From NCBI RefSeq assembly GCF_003334815.1, contig NZ_QOWO01000025.1: a stretch of DNA of 64,000 nt; one strand, 5' to 3'. The position numbers were made by a program, and so were the translations under genes. Below, piece after piece: positions 5,473 through 16,892 of this stretch. Source of the DNA: Escherichia coli (GTDB lineage Bacteria; Pseudomonadota; Gammaproteobacteria; Enterobacterales; Enterobacteriaceae). Below the pieces are notes generated by a model. The model was given only the letters and a program-made list of their open reading frames with translations, was not told the DNA's origin and ran no database searches. The first letter of the stretch is position 1, and each line of letters opens with the position of its first letter.

Positions 5473-8149
5473 CGAACCCTTACGTCCCGACCCCGATCGT
5501 CTGCTGGAACAAACTGCCGCGCCGCATCGGGGGAAGCTGAAAGTTTTCTTCGGTGCCTGTGCAGGCGTCGGGAAGACCTGGGCGATGCTGGCAGAAGCCC
5601 AGCGACTGCGGGCGCAAGGGCTGGATATTGTGGTTGGCGTGGTAGAAACCCACGGGCGAAAAGATACCGCCGCCATGCTGGAAGGGCTGGCTGTTCTGCC
5701 GTTAAAACGCCAGGCGTACCGTGGGCGGCATATCAGCGAGTTTGATCTCGATGCCGCCCTCGCCCGCCGCCCGGCGCTGATCTTAATGGACGAACTGGCG
5801 CACAGTAATGCGCCAGGTTCCCGTCATCCCAAACGCTGGCAGGATATCGAAGAACTGCTGGAAGCTGGCATTGATGTTTTCACTACCGTCAACGTTCAGC
5901 ATCTGGAAAGTCTGAATGATGTGGTCAGCGGCGTCACCGGAATTCAGGTACGGGAAACCGTGCCCGATCCTTTTTTCGATGCCGCCGACGACGTGGTGCT
6001 GGTGGACTTGCCCCCGGACGATCTGCGCCAGCGGCTGAAAGAAGGCAAAGTCTATATTGCCGGGCAGGCGGAGCGCGCCATTGAACATTTTTTCCGCAAA
6101 GGTAATCTGATCGCCCTGCGCGAACTGGCACTGCGCCGTACTGCCGATCGCGTTGATGAGCAAATGCGCGCCTGGCGGGGGCATCCTGGCGAAGAGAAAG
6201 TGTGGCACACGCGCGACGCGATCCTTTTATGCATCGGCCATAACACCGGCAGCGAAAAACTGGTCCGCGCAGCGGCGCGGCTGGCGTCACGGCTGGGTAG
6301 CGTCTGGCACGCGGTGTATGTTGAAACCCCTGCCCTGCACCGCTTACCGGAAAAAAAACGTCGGGCAATTCTCAGCGCCTTACGTCTGGCGCAGGAACTG
6401 GGCGCGGAGACGGCAACACTTTCTGATCCAGCGGAAGAGAAAGCGGTAGTGCGTTATGCCCGTGAACATAATCTCGGCAAGATTATTCTCGGTCGCCCGG
6501 CCTCGCGCCGCTGGTGGCGTCGGGAAACGTTTGCTGACCGACTGGCGCGCATCGCCCCCGATCTCGATCAGGTGCTGGTCGCGCTTGATGAACCACCCGC
6601 CCGCACGATTAACAACGCGCCGGATAACCGCTCTTTTAAAGACAAGTGGCGTGTACAAATTCAGGGATGCGTGGTTGCCGCCGCGTTATGCGCCGTTATC
6701 ACCTTAATTGCCATGCAGTGGCTGATGGCGTTTGATGCCGCCAACCTGGTGATGCTGTATCTGCTTGGCGTGGTGGTGGTGGCGCTATTTTATGGACGCT
6801 GGCCTTCAGTGGTTGCCACCGTCATTAATGTAGTGAGTTTCGATCTCTTTTTTATCGCCCCACGCGGCACGCTCGCCGTCTCTGATGTGCAATATCTGCT
6901 GACCTTCGCGGTGATGTTAACCGTCGGGCTGGTGATCGGGAACCTTACTGCTGGCGTGCGTTATCAGGCGCGGGTAGCCCGTTACCGCGAGCAACGCACA
7001 CGGCACTTATATGAAATGTCGAAAGCTCTGGCGGTGGGCCGCAGTCCGCAGGATATCGCTGCCACCAGCGAACAATTTATTGCCTCCACGTTTCATGCCC
7101 GCAGTCAGGTGTTGTTGCCCGATGACAACGGTAAATTGCAGCCGTTAACACATCCGCAAGGAATGACGCCGTGGGACGATGCCATCGCGCAGTGGAGTTT
7201 TGATAAAGGCCTGCCTGCGGGCGCGGGCACCGACACGTTACCCGGTGTACCGTACCAGATTTTGCCGCTAAAAAGCGGCGAGAAAACCTACGGGCTGGTG
7301 GTGGTGGAGCCGGGGAATCTGCGCCAGTTGATGATCCCGGAACAGCAGCGCCTGCTGGAGACGTTTACGCTGTTAGTCGCCAATGCCCTTGAGCGGCTGA
7401 CGCTAACCGCCAGCGAAGAACAGGCGCGGATGGCAAGCGAACGTGAACAGATCCGCAACGCCCTGCTGGCGGCGCTTTCGCATGATTTACGCACGCCGCT
7501 TACGGTGCTGTTTGGTCAGGCAGAAATCTTAACGCTCGATCTGGCAAGCGAAGGATCACCCCACGCCCGCCAGGCCAGCGAGATCCGTCAGCATGTGCTG
7601 AACACTACCCGACTGGTGAATAATCTACTGGATATGGCGCGAATTCAGTCCGGCGGCTTTAATTTGAAGAAAGAGTGGTTAACGCTGGAAGAAGTAGTCG
7701 GCAGCGCGCTGCAAATGCTGGAACCGGGTTTATCGTCGCCCATCAATCTTTCTCTGCCAGAACCGCTGACCTTAATCCACGTTGACGGGCCACTCTTTGA
7801 ACGGGTGCTGATTAATCTGCTGGAGAACGCGGTGAAATATGCGGGTGCGCAGGCCGAAATTGGTATCGATGCCCACGTTGAGGGCGAAAATCTACAACTG
7901 GATGTCTGGGATAACGGCCCCGGTCTTCCGCCAGGCCAGGAGCAGACGATATTTGATAAGTTTGCTCGCGGGAATAAAGAGTCGGCAGTACCGGGGGTAG
8001 GGCTTGGACTGGCAATTTGTCGGGCGATAGTGGATGTACACGGGGGCACTATTACCGCGTTCAACCGACCGGAAGGTGGTGCCTGTTTTCGTGTTACACT
8101 TCCCCAGCAAACTGCCCCTGAACTTGAAGAATTTCATGAGGATATGTGA
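5465..8149 (+). CDS. kdpD: Sensor histidine kinase KdpD
   Basis: 894-aa product starting [16 protein letters not shown]; Usp-like and TM regions, H-box SHDLRTPL, HATPase motifs; overlaps kdpC end and kdpE start. Confidence 0.95.
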
Positions 8150-8823
8150 CAAACGTTCTGATTGTTGAAGATGAACAGGCTATTCGTCGCTTTCTGCGCA
8201 CGGCGCTGGAGGGCGACGGGATGCGCGTCTTTGAGGCCGAAACGCTGCAACGCGGCTTGCTGGAAGCGGCAACCCGTAAGCCAGATTTGATTATTCTCGA
8301 TCTCGGCCTGCCCGATGGTGATGGGATTGAGTTTATCCGCGACCTGCGCCAGTGGAGCGCGGTGCCGGTGATTGTGCTTTCCGCACGCAGCGAAGAGAGC
8401 GACAAAATCGCCGCGCTGGATGCCGGAGCGGATGATTATCTGAGTAAGCCGTTTGGCATTGGCGAATTGCAGGCCCGTCTGCGCGTCGCATTACGCCGCC
8501 ACTCTGCCACCACCGCGCCCGATCCGCTGGTAAAATTTTCCGATGTTACCGTCGATTTAGCCGCCCGCGTGATTCACCGGGGTGAGGAAGAGGTGCATCT
8601 CACACCAATTGAGTTCCGCCTGCTGGCGGTGCTGCTCAACAATGCCGGAAAAGTACTCACCCAGCGCCAGCTCCTTAACCAGGTGTGGGGGCCAAACGCG
8701 GTCGAACACAGTCACTATTTGCGTATTTATATGGGACATCTGCGACAAAAACTGGAACAGGATCCCGCCCGCCCACGCCATTTCATTACTGAAACCGGTA
8801 TTGGCTATCGGTTTATGCTTTGA
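8146..8823 (+). CDS. kdpE: Response regulator KdpE (OmpR family)
   Basis: 225-aa [20 protein letters not shown]...; receiver domain plus winged-helix C-terminus; 4-bp overlap with kdpD. Confidence 0.95.
   Translation: MTNVLIVEDEQAIRRFLRTALEGDGMRVFEAETLQRGLLEAATRKPDLIILDLGLPDGDGIEFIRDLRQWSAVPVIVLSARSEESDKIAALDAGADDYLSKPFGIGELQARLRVALRRHSATTAPDPLVKFSDVTVDLAARVIHRGEEEVHLTPIEFRLLAVLLNNAGKVLTQRQLLNQVWGPNAVEHSHYLRIYMGHLRQKLEQDPARPRHFITETGIGYRFML
8694..8823 (+). repeat. Direct repeat copy 1 (3' end of kdpE)
   Basis: About 130 bp, roughly 92% identical to 13029-13158 by manual alignment. Confidence 0.85.
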
Positions 8824-8858
8824 ATATTAATTTTAATACAGCCTGCCTTTTATTAATT

Positions 8859-9418: not shown

Positions 9419-11617
9419 ATGTCAAAATTAAAAATTGCGGTTAGTGATTCTTGCCCGTACTGTTTTACCACGCAGCGAGAATGTATCTACATTAATGAAA
9501 GTCGTAATATCGATGTGGCGGCAATAGTTTTATCGCTCAACGATGTTACATGCGGAAAACTCGATGAAATCGATGCCACGGGTTATGGCATCCCGGTATT
9601 TATTGCTACTGAAAATCAAGAACGTGTACCCGCAGAGTATTTGCCCCGTATTTCGGGTGTCTTTGAGAATTGCGAATCGCGACGAGAATTTTATGGTCGC
9701 CAGTTAGAAACCGCTGCCAGCCATTATGAAACTCAACTGCGCCCACCTTTCTTCCGCGCACTGGTCGATTATGTCAATCAAGGTAACAGCGCGTTTGATT
9801 GCCCTGGTCATCAGGGCGGCGAATTTTTCCGTCGCCATCCGGCGGGGAATCAGTTTGTGGAATACTTTGGTGAGGCGCTGTTCCGTGCCGACTTGTGCAA
9901 CGCCGACGTAGCGATGGGCGATCTGCTGATTCACGAAGGCGCGCCATGCATTGCACAGCAACATGCGGCAAAAGTGTTTAATGCCGATAAAACCTACTTC
10001 GTTTTAAATGGCACTTCATCTTCTAACAAAGTGGTTTTAAACGCCCTGCTAACACCGGGTGATCTGGTGCTGTTTGATCGCAATAACCACAAATCTAACC
10101 ACCACGGAGCGTTGCTACAGGCTGGTGCAACACCGGTTTATCTGGAAACGGCACGTAACCCGTATGGCTTTATCGGTGGCATTGATGCGCACTGTTTTGA
10201 AGAAAGTTACCTGCGTGAGCTGATCGCGGAAGTCGCACCGCAGCGGGCAAAAGAGGCTCGTCCTTTCCGCCTCGCTGTGATTCAGTTAGGCACCTACGAC
10301 GGTACGATTTATAACGCCCGCCAAGTGGTGGATAAAATTGGTCATCTGTGTGACTACATCCTGTTTGACTCAGCATGGGTCGGCTATGAACAGTTTATTC
10401 CGATGATGGCGGACTGTTCGCCGCTGTTGCTGGATCTTAATGAGAACGATCCGGGTATTCTGGTTACGCAATCTGTGCATAAACAACAGGCTGGTTTTTC
10501 TCAGACTTCACAAATTCATAAAAAAGACAGCCACATCAAAGGGCAACAGCGTTATGTACCGCACAAACGCATGAACAACGCCTTTATGATGCACGCCTCC
10601 ACCAGCCCGTTCTATCCGCTGTTTGCCGCACTGGATATCAACGCCAAAATGCATGAAGGTGTCAGCGGTCGTAATATGTGGATGGATTGTGTGGTAAATG
10701 GCATTAATGCCCGCAAACTGATCCTCGATAACTGTCAGCATATTCGTCCGTTCGTACCTGAACTGGTGGATGGTAAACCCTGGCAGTCGTATGAAACAGC
10801 GCAAATTGCGGTTGATCTGCGCTTCTTCCAGTTTGTACCAGGGGAACACTGGCATTCTTTTGAAGGCTATGCAGAGAATCAATACTTTGTCGATCCATGC
10901 AAACTGTTGCTGACAACCCCAGGTATTGATGCACGTAACGGCGAATATGAAGCGTTCGGTGTACCCGCGACGATTCTTGCTAACTTCCTGCGCGAAAATG
11001 GCGTAGTGCCGGAAAAATGCGATCTTAACTCCATCCTCTTCCTGCTGACTCCGGCAGAAGATATGGCCAAACTTCAGCAACTTGTTGCCCTGCTGGTACG
11101 CTTCGAAAAACTGCTTGAGTCCGACGCGCCATTAGCAGAAGTGCTACCTTCCATCTACAAACAGCATGAAGAGCGCTACGCCGGTTATACCCTGCGTCAG
11201 TTGTGTCAGGAAATGCATGATTTGTATGCCCGCCACAACGTGAAACAACTGCAAAAAGAGATGTTCCGTAAGGAGCACTTCCCACGCGTCAGCATGAATC
11301 CGCAAGAAGCCAACTACGCCTATTTACGCGGTGAAGTGGAACTGGTTCGTCTGCCGGATGCAGAAGGCCGTATCGCTGCCGAAGGTGCGCTTCCTTATCC
11401 TCCGGGTGTGCTGTGTGTTGTTCCGGGTGAAATCTGGGGTGGTGCTGTTCTGCGTTACTTCAGCGCTCTGGAAGAAGGGATCAACCTGCTGCCAGGTTTT
11501 GCACCGGAGCTGCAGGGTGTCTATATCGAAGAACATGATGGTCGTAAGCAAGTTTGGTGCTATGTCATCAAGCCTCGTGATGCGCAAAGCACCCTGTTGA
11601 AAGGGGAAAAATTATGA
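9419..11617 (+). CDS. speF: Inducible ornithine decarboxylase
   Basis: 732-aa ORF, PLP-dependent Orn/Lys/Arg decarboxylase family; followed by potE with 4-bp overlap. Confidence 0.95.
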   Translation: MSKLKIAVSDSCPYCFTTQRECIYINESRNIDVAAIVLSLNDVTCGKLDEIDATGYGIPVFIATENQERVPAEYLPRISGVFENCESRREFYGRQLETAASHYETQLRPPFFRALVDYVNQGNSAFDCPGHQGGEFFRRHPAGNQFVEYFGEALFRADLCNADVAMGDLLIHEGAPCIAQQHAAKVFNADKTYFVLNGTSSSNKVVLNALLTPGDLVLFDRNNHKSNHHGALLQAGATPVYLETARNPYGFIGGIDAHCFEESYLRELIAEVAPQRAKEARPFRLAVIQLGTYDGTIYNARQVVDKIGHLCDYILFDSAWVGYEQFIPMMADCSPLLLDLNENDPGILVTQSVHKQQAGFSQTSQIHKKDSHIKGQQRYVPHKRMNNAFMMHASTSPFYPLFAALDINAKMHEGVSGRNMWMDCVVNGINARKLILDNCQHIRPFVPELVDGKPWQSYETAQIAVDLRFFQFVPGEHWHSFEGYAENQYFVDPCKLLLTTPGIDARNGEYEAFGVPATILANFLRENGVVPEKCDLNSILFLLTPAEDMAKLQQLVALLVRFEKLLESDAPLAEVLPSIYKQHEERYAGYTLRQLCQEMHDLYARHNVKQLQKEMFRKEHFPRVSMNPQEANYAYLRGEVELVRLPDAEGRIAAEGALPYPPGVLCVVPGEIWGGAVLRYFSALEEGINLLPGFAPELQGVYIEEHDGRKQVWCYVIKPRDAQSTLLKGEKL

Positions 11618-12933
11618 GTCAGGCTAAATCGAACAAAATGGGCGTCGTTCAGTTAACCATACTGACGATGGTCAACATGATGGGCTCCGGTATCATCATG
11701 CTGCCGACAAAGCTTGCCGAAGTCGGGACAATCTCAATTATCTCCTGGCTGGTGACAGCCGTAGGCTCAATGGCACTGGCATGGGCATTCGCAAAATGCG
11801 GTATGTTCAGCCGTAAATCAGGCGGTATGGGCGGTTATGCCGAGTATGCTTTCGGTAAATCCGGTAACTTTATGGCGAACTATACCTACGGCGTCTCACT
11901 GCTGATTGCTAACGTCGCGATTGCTATTTCGGCGGTTGGTTACGGCACCGAACTGCTCGGCGCGAGTTTGTCGCCAGTGCAGATTGGTCTTGCGACCATC
12001 GGGGTGCTGTGGATTTGTACCGTGGCTAACTTTGGTGGTGCGCGCATTACCGGGCAAATCAGTAGCATTACCGTGTGGGGGGTCATTATTCCGGTCGTCG
12101 GTCTGTGCATTATTGGCTGGTTCTGGTTTAGCCCGACGCTGTACGTTGATTCCTGGAATCCGCATCATGCACCGTTCTTCAGTGCGGTAGGTTCTTCCAT
12201 CGCTATGACGCTGTGGGCTTTTCTTGGTCTGGAGTCTGCGTGTGCGAATACTGATGTAGTGGAAAACCCGGAACGTAATGTGCCAATCGCGGTACTCGGC
12301 GGTACGTTAGGTGCGGCGGTGATTTATATCGTCTCCACCAACGTGATTGCCGGGATTGTGCCAAATATGGAGCTGGCAAATTCAACGGCACCATTTGGTC
12401 TGGCCTTCGCGCAGATGTTCACGCCGGAAGTGGGTAAAGTCATTATGGCGCTGATGGTGATGTCCTGCTGCGGTTCGCTACTTGGCTGGCAGTTCACCAT
12501 TGCCCAGGTGTTTAAATCTTCATCTGATGAAGGCTACTTCCCTAAAATTTTCTCCCGTGTAACCAAAGTGGATGCACCGGTGCAGGGAATGTTGACCATT
12601 GTGATTATTCAGAGTGGATTGGCACTGATGACCATTAGCCCGTCGCTAAACAGTCAGTTCAACGTGCTGGTTAACCTGGCCGTGGTGACCAATATCATTC
12701 CGTATATTCTGTCAATGGCGGCATTAGTCATTATTCAGAAGGTCGCTAATGTGCCCCCCTCAAAAGCGAAAGTTGCAAACTTTGTTGCTTTTGTTGGCGC
12801 GATGTATAGCTTTTATGCGCTGTACTCATCCGGGGAAGAAGCCATGCTGTACGGTTCCATCGTGACCTTCCTTGGTTGGACACTGTATGGTCTGGTATCA
12901 CCACGCTTTGAACTGAAAAATAAACACGGTTAA
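11614..12933 (+). CDS. potE: Putrescine-ornithine antiporter
   Basis: 439-aa polytopic APC-family transporter MSQAKSNKMGVVQLTILT... Confidence 0.95.
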   Translation: MSQAKSNKMGVVQLTILTMVNMMGSGIIMLPTKLAEVGTISIISWLVTAVGSMALAWAFAKCGMFSRKSGGMGGYAEYAFGKSGNFMANYTYGVSLLIANVAIAISAVGYGTELLGASLSPVQIGLATIGVLWICTVANFGGARITGQISSITVWGVIIPVVGLCIIGWFWFSPTLYVDSWNPHHAPFFSAVGSSIAMTLWAFLGLESACANTDVVENPERNVPIAVLGGTLGAAVIYIVSTNVIAGIVPNMELANSTAPFGLAFAQMFTPEVGKVIMALMVMSCCGSLLGWQFTIAQVFKSSSDEGYFPKIFSRVTKVDAPVQGMLTIVIIQSGLALMTISPSLNSQFNVLVNLAVVTNIIPYILSMAALVIIQKVANVPPSKAKVANFVAFVGAMYSFYALYSSGEEAMLYGSIVTFLGWTLYGLVSPRFELKNKHG

Positions 12934-12948
12934 TAAAACAAAGTAAAA

Positions 12949-12978
12949 AAGGGCGATTGAATGATCGCCCTTTCTGTT
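12949..12978 (+). terminator. Rho-independent terminator after potE
   Basis: Hairpin gggcgat(tgaatg)atcgccc followed by a T-rich run. Confidence 0.6.
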
Positions 12979-13028
12979 TGTTGGCAAATAGTTCGTTATT
13001 TATGCCGCATCCGGCAGATGTAGGGTCT

Positions 13029-13158
13029 AAACGCGATCGAACACAGCAACTATTTGCGTAATTATATGGGGCATCTGCGACAAAAACTGGAACAGGATCC
13101 GGCCCGGCCTCGCCATTTTATTACTGAAACCGGTATTGGGTATCGGTTTATGCTTTGA
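13029..13158 (+). pseudogene. Orphan kdpE 3' fragment (direct repeat copy 2)
   Basis: In-frame it encodes NAIEHSNYLRNYMGHLRQKLEQDPARPRHFITETGIGYRFML-stop versus the KdpE C-terminus; 10 nt differences over 43 codons (7 synonymous, 3 nonsynonymous); no start codon or upstream gene body. Confidence 0.8.
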
Positions 13159-13281
13159 AAAAAGTGGCAATGTATGGATAAAGTCATTTTTTATTCAAAT
13201 ATAAGGAACTTAATATTTAAAAAATGTTCCATACAATTCCTCATCATAAATGACACCGTAGCACACAAGGAGCAAGTAGCG

Positions 13282-13932
13282 ATGCGTGAAATGAATCAGT
13301 TAGTAAATACTGAAGATTCAGCCTGGCCAATAATCCAGAACTGGTTAAAAGACGCCACAAACCATACCGAACTCTTACCGGTTAATAAAGATTTAGCCGA
13401 AACCGCACTTTATCAATTACAGGTGACAACAAAATCACCGATGGGTGCGCTTGTCTATGGCTCCGGAGGTCTGCTGATTGATAATGGTTGGTTACGCATA
13501 GCAGGATCTGGTCACCCCCGGTTGCCACGAGATCCAGTAAGTTGGACACAACGCCCTGAATTCGCAGGCGTGCGGGCTTTACCCATCGCTGACGATGTCG
13601 CAGGGGGAATTTTTGCTCTTAATGGTGGCGATCTTGGGGAAGATACTGGCTGCGTTTATTATTTTGCGCCAGATACGCTGAATTGGGAAAGTCTGGAAGT
13701 TGGATATTCTGAGTTTCTTCAGTGGGCATTATCCGGTGATTTAGATACCTTCTATGAAAATGTACGATGGCAGCAATGGCGAGAAGACGTAATAAAATTA
13801 TCGGCAACGGAAGCCTTCACGTTCTACCCTTTCTTATGGGTACAAAGTGAAGAAGCAAGAACAAGAAAAGTTATTTCGCTTACTGAACTCTGGGAAATGC
13901 AGTATCAAATGAAAGAAACATTCACGCAATAA
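13282..13932 (+). CDS. ybfG: DUF2625-family protein YbfG
   Basis: 216-aa product from ATG at 13282 with AGGAG ribosome-binding site 7 nt upstream; six-frame ORF 13174-13932 trimmed. Confidence 0.65.
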   Translation: MREMNQLVNTEDSAWPIIQNWLKDATNHTELLPVNKDLAETALYQLQVTTKSPMGALVYGSGGLLIDNGWLRIAGSGHPRLPRDPVSWTQRPEFAGVRALPIADDVAGGIFALNGGDLGEDTGCVYYFAPDTLNWESLEVGYSEFLQWALSGDLDTFYENVRWQQWREDVIKLSATEAFTFYPFLWVQSEEARTRKVISLTELWEMQYQMKETFTQ

Positions 13933-13972
13933 GACATGTTCAGGTCCGGGTTTCATTCCCGGACTCACTATT

Positions 13973-14467
13973 TTAATGTGTATTTATCGCTTTCAATTCT
14001 TGCTGGCAATTTTCTGACTGGCAGCGTCGTAACTCAATAATCCCGACATGCATCATCGAGCCAAAAAATCCGCTTTCGCTGACATAATCCTCATTGACTA
14101 TCGGTCGAGTGCCGGGCTTGCCCTGGCAAACCCGCATAAAAAATGAGGTGTAGCATTGCCAACCGGGATTTAAACCGACCTTTTCTTGTGCTGACATATT
14201 ATGAAGATAAGTAAGTTCTTTTTCGTTCCCGCCTGACAACTGCCAGCGGCGGGTATTATCAGGTAAGTTATCACCACGGCAATTTGTCTTACACCGGAAA
14301 GGTGCAATATTTACCGCAATGCTACCCGTTAATCCTCTGGTTTTATCTTTAGGGGTCAGTAACCAGTCGCCAGCTAATGATGATTGTTCAGGTTGGGCGC
14401 ATGCAGTCAGCAGTAATGTGGCGGTAATTAGTGACACTATGACGACCAGACTCCTGTTGGTCTTCAT
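13973..14467 (-). CDS. ybfP: Lipoprotein YbfP
   Basis: 164-aa ORF with signal peptide and lipobox (LLLTAC); Cys-rich mature part. Confidence 0.75.
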   Translation of the reverse strand: MKTNRSLVVIVSLITATLLLTACAQPEQSSLAGDWLLTPKDKTRGLTGSIAVNIAPFRCKTNCRGDNLPDNTRRWQLSGGNEKELTYLHNMSAQEKVGLNPGWQCYTSFFMRVCQGKPGTRPIVNEDYVSESGFFGSMMHVGIIELRRCQSENCQQELKAINTH

Positions 14468-14527
14468 TGGGATTTCCTTGAGCTACTCAGTTTGTTGACA
14501 AAGTGTTCGTTGTTTTTGCCGGATGCG

Positions 14528-14625
14528 GCGTGAACGCCTTATCCGGCCTACAAAATCGCTTAAATTCAATATATTGCACCATCCTCGTAGGCCTGATAAG
14601 CGTAGCGCATCAGGCAATTCTGTGT
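14528..14625. repeat. REP/BIME palindromic elements
   Basis: gccggatgcggcgtgaacgccttatccggcctac and inverted partner ...taggcctgataagcgtagcgcatcaggc. Confidence 0.85.
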
Positions 14626-14637
14626 TTGTCATACGTA

Positions 14638-14670
14638 AAAAAGGGCGATCTTGCGACCGCCCTTTTTTTA
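14638..14670 (-). terminator. Rho-independent terminator downstream of pgm
   Basis: Hairpin gggcgatcttgcgaccgccc flanked by A/T runs. Confidence 0.55.
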
Positions 14671-14680
14671 TTAAATGTGT

Positions 14681-16321
14681 TTACGCGTTTTTCAGAACTT
14701 CGCTAACAATCTCAACCGCTTCTTTCTCAATCTGCTTGCGATGTTCTTCACCGAGGAAGCTTTCGCAGTAGATCTTATATGCGTCTTCCGTGCCTGACGG
14801 ACGCGCGGCGAACCAGCCGTTGTCAGTCATCACTTTCAGACCGCCAATAGAAGCACCGTTGCCCGGAGCAGCAGTCAGGCGCGCGGTGATCGGGTCACCT
14901 GCCAGGGTGCTGGCGCTCACCATTTCCGGAGACAGCTTAGACAGCGCCGCTTTTTGTGCGGAAGTCGCAGCTGCCTGCAAACGGTTGTAGCTCGGCGCAC
15001 CAAAGCGTTTTGCCAGTTCGTTGTAGTGTTCCTGCGGGTTCTTACCGGTGACAGCGGTGATTTCCGCCGCCAGCAGACACATGATGATGCCGTCTTTGTC
15101 GGTGGACCACGGCGTGCCGTCGAAACGCAGGAAGGAAGCCCCTGCACTCTCTTCGCCGCCAAAGCCGAAGCTGCCGTCGAACAGACCATCGACAAACCAT
15201 TTGAAACCTACCGGGACTTCTACCAGTTTACGGCCCAAGTCGTTGACCACACGGTCGATCATCGCAGATGAAACCAGCGTTTTACCGACGGCAACATCTT
15301 TGCCCCACTGCGGACGATGCTGGAACAGGTAATTGATTGCCACCGCCAGGTAGTGGTTCGGATTCATCAAACCTGCCGGAGTGACGATACCGTGACGGTC
15401 ATAATCCGGGTCGTTAGCAAACGCCAGATCGAACTTATCACGCAGTGCCAGCAGGCCCGCCATCGCACACTCGGAGGAGCAGTCCATACGGATCGCGCCG
15501 TCTTTATCAAGGTGCATAAAGCGGAAGGTTTGATCGACCTGATCGTTAACGATAGTCAGGTTGAGGTTGTAATACTCGCCAATACGCTTCCAGTATTCGA
15601 TACCGGAACCGCCCAGCGGATCAACGCCCAGCGTCAGGCCCGCTTTCTGAATCGCGGCCATATCAACGATATCGGCCAGACCTTCCACGAACGGCTGCAC
15701 CAGATCCTGCTCTTTCACATGACCGGATGCCATCGCTTCGTCGAGGGAGATACGCTTCACGCCTTTCAGGCCATCGGCCAGCAGTGCGTTGGCCCTGTCT
15801 TCCACCACTTTAGTGACGTTGGTATCAGCCGGGCCACCATTTGGCGGATTGTATTTGATTCCACCATCTTCCGGCGGGTTATGGGACGGTGTAATCACGA
15901 TACCGTCTGCCAGCGGGCCACCTTTTTTATTGTGAACCAGGATGGCATTGGAAACGGCAGGCGTCGGGGTGAAGCCATTGTTTTCCTGCACAATGACATC
16001 AACGCCGTTCGCTGCCAGCACTTCCAGAACGGAAATGAATGCAGGTTCGGACAGGGCGTGAGTATCTTTACCCACATAGCAAGGGCCAGTGATGCCGTTT
16101 TTCGCACGTTCTTCAGCAATTGCCTGAGCGATCGCCAGAATGTGCGGCTCGTTAAAGCTGTGGCGCGCTGCACTGCCACGGTGACCGGAAGTACCGAATT
16201 TCACCGCGTGCTCCGCATTCCCTGCTTCTGGTTTCAGTACATAATATTGCGCCGTCAGTTGGGCGACGTTAATCAAATCACTCTGTTGTGCAGGTTGGCC
16301 TGCACGATTGTGGATTGCCAT
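14681..16321 (-). CDS. pgm: Phosphoglucomutase
   Basis: 546-aa product starting [16 protein letters not shown]; active-site TSGHRG motif; six-frame ORF trimmed by 17 codons. Confidence 0.95.
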
Positions 16322-16346: not shown

Positions 16347-16892
16347 TTAGATAGTTCCGCAAACCTTCTCAATCAATTCCGCCGGGAATTGCATCGACTG
16401 CATGATGTGTTCGATCATGCTGCATTTACGGCCGGTGTTGGTGTTGGTGATCACCCAATACGGCGTGCCTGGCACATGTTTCGGCTTGGTCTGATTACCA
16501 TTTTTCAGCAGCGTTTGTTCATCTGCCGCAAAGTAAACGCGTGTACGACCGTGCAACGATTCCGTTGCTTCGGCAAACGCCTGGGCGTCAAGAGAATATA
16601 GTGTAGACAACAGCAGCATAAAGCGATTGACCGCTCGCTTTTGCTCTGCGTATTCATCCGAAAGCAGAAGTTCACGCATTGCGCGAACCTTGTCTTTAAT
16701 CGTTTTGACCGGCTTCGCTTCGACGATAGCAGGTGACGCAACGCGAACCTCTTTCGTCACCGGAGCAGCAGGCTGTGATGCGGCGGAAAATTTCAACATA
16801 CGCCGTAAAATGTCGGATGCGCTCTCGCCGATATGCTTAGTGTGGCTGGCAATATAGCTGTAGAGTTCATCATCAACTTCAATCGTTTTCAT
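16347..16892 (-). CDS. seqA: Replication initiation negative regulator SeqA
   Basis: 181-aa product [35 protein letters not shown]; upstream of pgm in the same operon. Confidence 0.95.

Follow-up and report, generated by a model that had tools for sequence, protein, structure and literature searches.

We examined ybfG and ybfP, two convergent genes between kdpE and pgm in Escherichia coli contig NZ_QOWO01000025.1 (assembly GCF_003334815.1), within a 64,000-nucleotide stretch that we call the window. The two genes are independent modules, not a pair, and we hold it somewhat better than an even bet that they mark a recombination hotspot carrying an orphan immunity gene (ybfG) beside an unrelated lipoprotein gene (ybfP). 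Judging by its predicted structure, YbfG very probably has a SUKH/Tdi1-like fold; that it acts as an orphan SUKH/Tdi1-like immunity protein is a tentative proposal, which we place a little short of even. Both genes are already known and annotated. What is new is the immunity-fold assignment for YbfG and its family DUF2625, combined with published sigma-E control, together with a small YbfP family, defined here, and a description of the hotspot as modular and bounded by repeats.

Both open reading frames (ORFs) described in the initial annotation were confirmed, ybfG encoding a 216-aa DUF2625 protein and ybfP a 164-aa, Cys-rich lipoprotein. The DUF2625 and NCBIfam matches of YbfG and the homologues and dN/dS (nonsynonymous over synonymous divergence) of ybfP, given below, show that these are not chance ORFs. 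Among 5426 complete E. coli genomes screened for presence and absence, ybfG was found in 1853 (34%) and ybfP in 2113, always on the chromosome and essentially in single copy, and both were absent from 61%; clinical and laboratory strains are overrepresented among these genomes, so such counts are not population frequencies. A pangenome study likewise reports that ybfP frequency differs between strain groups (0.251 vs 0.590; PMC11390585). Outside E. coli, neither gene lies between kdpE and pgm at any of 80 Enterobacterales loci, found by scanning GTDB species representatives for KdpE and mapped by tblastn. The islet is accessory in E. coli, as first supposed: it is not universally conserved with syntenic flanks in Enterobacterales, and neither product has homology to a housekeeping enzyme. 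From composite junction queries and annotated examples we distinguish five haplotypes, in which kdpE′ is a second copy of the kdpE tail and BIME a bacterial interspersed mosaic element built of repetitive extragenic palindromes (REPs):

Type I: kdpE-speFL-speF-potE-(56 bp)-pgm, 3197 genomes, including CFT073, O157:H7 and Nissle
Type II: type I plus kdpE′ tail-ybfG-ybfP-BIME, ~1851 genomes, including K-12, ST167 and this window
Type III: kdpE-BIME-ybfP-BIME-pgm, ~258 genomes
Type IV: kdpE-BIME-pgm with a 162-bp gap, ~99 genomes (357 jointly with type III)
Type V: kdpE-ybfG-ybfP-pgm, two clean genomes and two IS1-rearranged ones, including CUWW10 and GF4-3

The two IS1-associated rearrangements also place kdpE beside ybfG.

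The initial annotation had proposed a secreted lipoprotein and its cytoplasmic partner as candidate cargo that either came in with speF-potE or was pushed out when speF-potE inserted. The genes are indeed adjacent, both low in GC, beside the kdpE tail scar and co-occurring in ~1851 genomes; against a functional pair, they are transcribed convergently, ybfP stands alone in ~258 genomes, and ybfG is a separate indel of 810 bp. Co-occurrence is also absent from the contexts examined outside E. coli, with no DUF2625 neighbor at the one Budviciaceae locus of a YbfP relative and no YbfP-like gene in seven DUF2625 contexts. Arrival with speF-potE does not hold, since 3197 genomes and other genera have speF-potE but no islet, and displacement fails because the K-12 arrangement contains both, so that neither displaced the other. 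We consider a functional pair tied to the speF-potE insertion very improbable.

YbfG belongs to DUF2625 by a full-length, above-threshold profile match to Pfam PF10946 (E = 1.5e-87; residues 4–202 against model positions 1–206 of 207) and scores 512.7 bits against the NCBIfam equivalog PRK11408.1-1 (NF008494), whose cutoff is 278. The family is spread over Enterobacterales, Burkholderia, Variovorax and Bacteroidota; the nearest relatives outside E. coli share 54–57% identity, and YbfG keeps every invariant family residue. No mention of DUF2625 or PF10946 was found in a literature search, and PADLOC and PHROGs scans of YbfG and YbfP returned nothing. The structure model of YbfG has a predicted local distance difference test (pLDDT) score of 90.9 and shows the alpha+beta fold expected of SUKH proteins. 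Its structural matches, with their scores, are:

8g0k_D, Bacteroides type VI secretion system (T6SS) immunity protein Tdi1, 13.0 (167 residues aligned)
6itw_A, Agrobacterium Tdi1 (Atu4351), 11.3
2icg, 3d5p and 2prv, SUKH-1/SMI1-KNR4 proteins including YobK, 9–10
Knr4, 6.9
8bd1_B, the Rhs immunity protein RhsPI, 5.5
Syd, 5.3

Compared with Tdi1/Atu4351, a DUF1851 protein that confers immunity to Ntox15/Tde DNases, the modeled YbfG has a similar fold at 11–14% sequence identity. It is not itself a Tdi1/DUF1851 member: DUF1851 is absent from its Pfam scan, no Ntox15 effector is adjacent, no Ntox15 toxin linked to DUF2625 is known, and sigma-E control has not been described for Tdi proteins. Compared with SUKH-1 (SMI1/KNR4) proteins such as Bacillus subtilis YobK and RhsPI, YbfG has additional elements at its C-terminus and is the larger protein; its sequence similarity to them is nonsignificant and the E. 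coli gene is solitary. Tdi proteins insert into the nuclease core of Ntox15 DNases, and orphan copies are common and protective (PMC10470768). As an immunity protein, YbfG would be cytoplasmic and would bind and inactivate an incoming polymorphic-toxin domain, probably a nuclease.

Genomic contexts of seven DUF2625 homologues give a mixed picture. In Flavobacterium, a DUF2314 gene follows the DUF2625 gene by 20 bp and a SuFu gene is nearby, and in Citrobacter the DUF2625 gene is part of an array of small ORFs, all on one strand, and begins 650 bp beyond a DUF596 gene. All three neighbors are immunity families of polyimmunity loci (DUF2314 = Imm34, SuFu = Imm-SuFu, DUF596 = Imm-NMB0513; Zhang et al. 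2012). Other contexts include a mobile island with Mrr, IS110 and CbtA/CbeA in Yersinia and an adjoining insertion sequence (IS) in Dickeya, while in Burkholderia and Pantoea the gene is solitary.

Several results count against an immunity role. Known immunity families occur in only 2/7 DUF2625 contexts and in none of the other 5/7. We found no toxin gene beside ybfG in the window or in E. coli, and none in the seven homologue contexts; the unannotated ORFs on either side of DUF2625 in Citrobacter and Flavobacterium, scanned with NCBIfam and Pfam, likewise revealed no recognizable toxin. The Pfam SMI1_KNR4 match is sub-threshold (E = 0.14, YbfG residues 98–137), and a profile of 38 DUF2625 sequences searched against all Protein Data Bank chains gave no meaningful match and no SUKH or Tdi chain, so the link to SUKH/Tdi1 is structural only and drawn from a predicted structure. 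Finally, K-12 lives without functional ybfG, and some strains carry IS1 insertions in or near it.

The state of ybfG in K-12 is not representative. The gene starts at ATG 13282, with AAGGAG 8 nt upstream, a start that coincides with the N-termini of 37 homologues; a longer 252-aa ORF (13174–13932, from ATG 13174) was rejected on the same N-termini. Across 12934–14680, the window differs from K-12 W3110 at two bases, both inside ybfG: W3110 has TGG to TAG, giving a W70 amber codon (window 13490), and G109V (window 13607). The amber codon makes ybfG a pseudogene in K-12, whereas the window strain is not K-12 and its ybfG is intact. The initial annotation asked whether the gene is intact in other strains. 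The amber allele is found in 364 genomes, the examples listed being mostly K-12 derivatives, and 1284 further genomes lie one base from K-12 in a 61-nt stretch at the amber site, as the intact window sequence would. Alleles are 95–100% identical, with a frameshift in one divergent lineage, and several strains carry IS1, IS903B or ISVsa5 insertions within ybfG or between the kdpE′ tail and ybfG. A gene routinely regarded as a meaningless K-12 pseudogene is thus intact in most of its natural carriers.

Expression of ybfG has been tied to envelope stress. It is among 28 sigma-E promoters mapped by 5′ rapid amplification of cDNA ends (RACE) in K-12 (PMC1312014), and sigma-E overproduction induces it 25-fold (PMC2731931). 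Upstream of the gene we read GGAACTT (−35, 13205–13211), a 16-nt spacer and TCCAT (−10), with A/T-rich sequence further upstream, a motif that presumably corresponds to the RACE-mapped promoter; its −10 element departs from TCAAA, and the strict pattern GGAACTT N15–17 TCNNA had 0 matches. Taking the literature and this motif together, ybfG has the sigma-E dependent start and GGAACTT/TCAAA-type promoter of a sigma-E regulon member and would be transcribed upon envelope damage. Were the immunity role real, it would link the sigma-E response to defense against contact-dependent toxins and give the whole DUF2625 family an annotation.

Membership of the sigma-E regulon also underlies the main rival for YbfG, a Syd/Smi1-like envelope-stress regulator of a resident partner (for example a membrane or cell-wall biogenesis protein) with no part in immunity. 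We consider this unlikely. YbfG is patchy and accessory, present in about a third of E. coli, and distant from its nearest outside relatives; K-12 has a nonsense allele and ybfG is used there as a neutral control knock-out; two DUF2625 contexts are polyimmunity-like arrays; and the top structural matches are, by a wide margin, bona fide immunity proteins.

YbfP has a different character. Its sequence carries 7 Cys, including Cys23, and a signal peptide that ends in the lipobox LTAC, features that mark it as a predicted lipoprotein, which is also its RefSeq name. The N-terminus reads MKTNRSLVVIVSLITATLLLTAC followed by AQ, with Ala at +2 and then Gln. Under the established +2 rule, lipoproteins that have no Asp at this position are sorted to the outer membrane, and Ala there predicts such sorting for YbfP. 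Its structure model is an eight-stranded barrel with a C-terminal helix, at pLDDT 85–94 across the mature part. YbfP matches no Pfam or NCBIfam family, the MliC/PliC model included; the nearest known systems are small beta-barrel binders, either periplasmic or lipoproteins (lysozyme inhibitors of the MliC/PliC type, lipocalins, avidins). As a guess, such a fold most naturally suggests binding or inhibition in the periplasm: YbfP would be a disulfide-stabilized barrel lipoprotein at the outer membrane that most likely binds a periplasmic ligand or protein. A 'pectinase' label attached to YbfP in databases was unsupported by any search.

An exhaustive search of 1.8 billion representatives, combined with a profile search, yielded a YbfP family that appears restricted to Escherichia and Budviciaceae. 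Escherichia members are 79–100% identical, the lower figure being that of the most divergent full-length allele; several database entries have been truncated by frameshifts. Further relatives are a metagenome lipoprotein (37% identical), a Leminorella lipoprotein (34%) and secreted proteins of 156–218 aa in Budvicia, Limnobaculum and Jinshanibacter (21–25%). Conserved across the family are GW-x-C, a second Cys nine residues on, S-x-x-G, G-x-x-EL and a C-terminal C-x4-C. Between allele groups, dN/dS is 0.20–0.28 for ybfP and 0.00–0.05 for the flanking kdpE and pgm, at synonymous divergence (dS) of 0.13–0.17 for ybfP, 0.14–0.20 for kdpE and 0.07–0.12 for pgm. Low dN/dS at a dS close to that of its flanks indicates that ybfP is constrained but fast-evolving and has diverged together with its flanks, and is not a recent arrival.

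These values bear on a second alternative, that ybfG and ybfP are functionless, slowly decaying remnants of an old horizontal transfer. The K-12 pseudogene, the IS1, IS903 and ISVsa5 insertions in or near ybfG, the frameshifted lineage, the many truncated YbfP entries and the absence of both genes from most genomes would all fit decay. Yet ybfP remains under constraint at a dS as high as that of its flanks, and ybfG retains all invariant residues, a regulated promoter and, in ~1284 genomes, a match to the intact amber-site sequence; we regard decay as improbable. About equally improbable, at the other extreme, is a miniature interbacterial-defense islet in which YbfG would supply orphan immunity of a danger-sensed kind, induced by sigma-E once an attacker breaches the envelope, YbfP would neutralize a periplasm-acting effector, and DUF2625 would be an unrecognized SUKH/Tdi1 immunity clade. 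Two long-standing E. coli 'y-genes' gain a testable identity.

The architecture of the locus supports separate modules. Gene order in the window is kdpD, kdpE, speFL, speF, potE, kdpE tail copy, ybfG, ybfP, BIME, pgm, seqA, ybfF, with the following features:

8146–8823, intact kdpE; its 3′ end at 8680–8824 (plus strand) is the reference copy of a 145-nt repeat
9419–11617, speF
11614–12933, potE
12943–12973, potE terminator hairpin, terminator-like on both strands; left copy of a 31-nt direct repeat bounding the islet
12976–13015, 40-nt copy of the ybfP-upstream/REP-edge sequence (GTTTGTTGGCAAATAGTTCGTT...GCCGCATCCGGC), just inside the left terminator
13015–13159, plus strand, orphan kdpE′ tail, a pseudogene fragment (stop codon 13156–13158) that RefSeq lists as a partial winged-helix pseudogene
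13205–13232, plus strand, probable sigma-E promoter of ybfG, a motif read in the sequence
13282–13932, plus strand, ybfG, 216 aa, DUF2625, intact in this strain; predicted SUKH/Tdi1-like immunity fold
13943–13965, GC-rich hairpin between the convergent genes, a likely terminator
13973–14467, minus strand, ybfP, 164-aa lipoprotein; predicted eight-stranded beta-barrel with C-terminal helix
14490–14529, ybfP upstream region/REP edge, second copy of the 12976–13015 repeat (blastn ~81%, 43–44 nt)
14518–14615, BIME of two inverted REP elements, with matches in every E. coli genome
14635–14665, pgm terminator hairpin, right copy of the 31-nt repeat, 81% identical to 12943–12973
14681–16321, minus strand, pgm
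16347–16892, seqA

The low GC reported for the DNA between the orphan kdpE tail and the BIME was borne out (43.7% for 13159–14467 vs 51.2% for the window), as were the 145-nt repeat and the REP pair. GC at third codon positions (GC3) is 36.9% in ybfG and 44.8% in ybfP, compared with 58–60% in kdpE, potE and pgm; the islet genes are of foreign composition (GC3 37–45% vs 55–60% in neighbors). Two terminator-hairpin copies enclose the 1.69-kb islet, type I genomes have one terminator only between potE and pgm, and the divergent E. coli E69 has potE-terminator-[14490–14529-like sequence]-BIME-terminator-pgm with nothing else between. The REP/BIME stretch finds at least 40 matching pieces in most E. 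coli genomes, and an Rfam scan of 12800–14800 returned only sub-threshold REP-derived (naRNA4) or terminator-like matches. No integrase or transposase ORF lies in 12934–14680, where the boundaries are the terminator repeat, the kdpE tail repeat and REPs, and the locus does not conform to a classical genomic island or mobile element with integrase or transposase, tRNA/att site and terminal repeats. It resembles REP/BIME and short-repeat indel polymorphisms at E. coli intergenic hotspots, in that its modules lie between REPs, copies of a terminator and copies of a gene tail, integrase, tRNA and transposase are lacking, and multiple alternative occupants are found across strains and species. It differs from other such hotspots in having three nested modules at one site and a stranded kdpE tail that records how two haplotypes were joined.

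As a separate observation, the potE and pgm terminators are paralogous hairpins that differ in their loops. E. albertii retains the potE type alone between potE and pgm, CFT073 and O157 have the pgm type alone, and K-12-type strains and E69 have both.

The orphan kdpE tail, which the initial annotation took for a recombination scar, is a genuine one. Repeat search and pairwise alignment show 90% identity over 145 nt between 13015–13159 and the kdpE 3′ end at 8680–8824. In its last 31 codons all seven differences from resident kdpE are synonymous and the peptide is identical, a pattern that rules out a randomly decayed copy; the first 15 codons hold six replacements and a stop. The tail has 12–19 differences from each kdpE allele sampled. 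Because its 3′ changes are purely synonymous, it must derive from a functional, divergent kdpE allele that once stood directly before ybfG, and it shows no more than this former position of ybfG behind a kdpE gene.

The module edges are equally sharp. Relative to type III genomes, ybfG is a clean 810-bp indel: homology breaks off within the stop codon of kdpE and picks up again at 13969, 4 nt short of the ybfP stop. That codon (8821–8823; 13156–13158 in the tail) is TGA in types I, II and V and in the tail, before speFL or ybfG DNA, and TAG in types III and IV, where a REP comes next. The stop thus tracks the downstream DNA, which places the homology break inside it. Type III has REPs on both sides of ybfP, and type IV has a single BIME. 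A separate tandem duplication between kdpE and pgm in Escherichia sp. MOD1-EC7003 (L026:9695-10060), made of a ~50-nt kdpE tail, BIME and terminator with its junction at CGCCC of the terminator stem, shows that such events happen here repeatedly.

We propose that the islet is a stack of separately acquired and separately losable modules, not a single cargo unit: ybfP, bracketed by REP/BIME; ybfG, the 810-bp indel; and speFL-speF-potE. In the simplest reading, the K-12-type arrangement would have arisen when two crossovers near REP-like sequence, one homologous and the other illegitimate, joined a speF-potE haplotype to a kdpE-ybfG-ybfP one, which would have stranded the last 135–145 nt of the second kdpE allele and duplicated the terminator. 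The short repeats would then permit later loss of modules by recombination. Against this scheme, the two type V genomes have ordinary kdpE tails and not the tail′ allele. CUWW10 is otherwise identical to K-12-type strains, which favors deletion over an ancestral relic; its arrangement probably arose from type II by a secondary deletion. The locus illustrates cleanly that small accessory modules can be assembled and taken apart through REPs, terminators and a duplicated gene tail, with no mobile-element machinery, which is of use in interpreting pangenome presence/absence calls and to those who treat ybfG or ybfP as neutral loci.

Comparison across species indicates which occupant came first. 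Adjacency of kdpE and pgm is kept from Serratia, Yersinia, Pantoea and Dickeya to Escherichia (80 loci). Between them, speF-potE is found in E. albertii, Enterobacter, Kluyvera, Lelliottia, Raoultella and some Citrobacter, and is missing in other Citrobacter and more distant genera. No occupant is more widespread than speF-potE, which is also the older one, and ybfG and ybfP are additions to the site specific to E. coli. Other kdpE-pgm gaps, of 4.8–7.5 kb (L056, L065, L079, L094), hold a fimbrial usher operon, a taurine-type ABC binding protein/transporter with adenine deaminase, lipase/hydrolase genes, and methylmalonyl-CoA mutase with a KAS III-like gene. Such varied cargo identifies the site as a recombination hotspot. 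In Enterobacter sp. CC120223-11 (L046:10703-15011), the interval contains an 861-aa T6SS Tle1-like phospholipase effector and then three tandem ~175-aa ORFs; a scan of one of them gave a match to the Tli1a immunity family. Genes of interbacterial conflict therefore use this hotspot in another species. Kinship of YbfP with these Tli1a proteins was ruled out by BLASTP.

Neighboring genes show further divergence. Among E. coli haplotypes, speF is unusually divergent: its dS is 0.35 vs CFT073 and 0.22 vs O157, while that of adjacent potE is 0.03–0.06, which suggests mosaic recombination or import within the operon; the E69 proteins are 93% (SpeF) and 95% (PotE) identical to those of the window. 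In GCA_052662545.1 and GCA_052952975.1 (L008, L009), kdpD, speF, potE, pgm, chiP and more are split into fragments, which could reflect Shigella-like decay or a low-quality assembly. Between haplotypes, dS is 0.10–0.20 for kdpE, 0.05–0.12 for pgm and 0.008–0.05 for seqA, so that diversity is raised around the polymorphic site.

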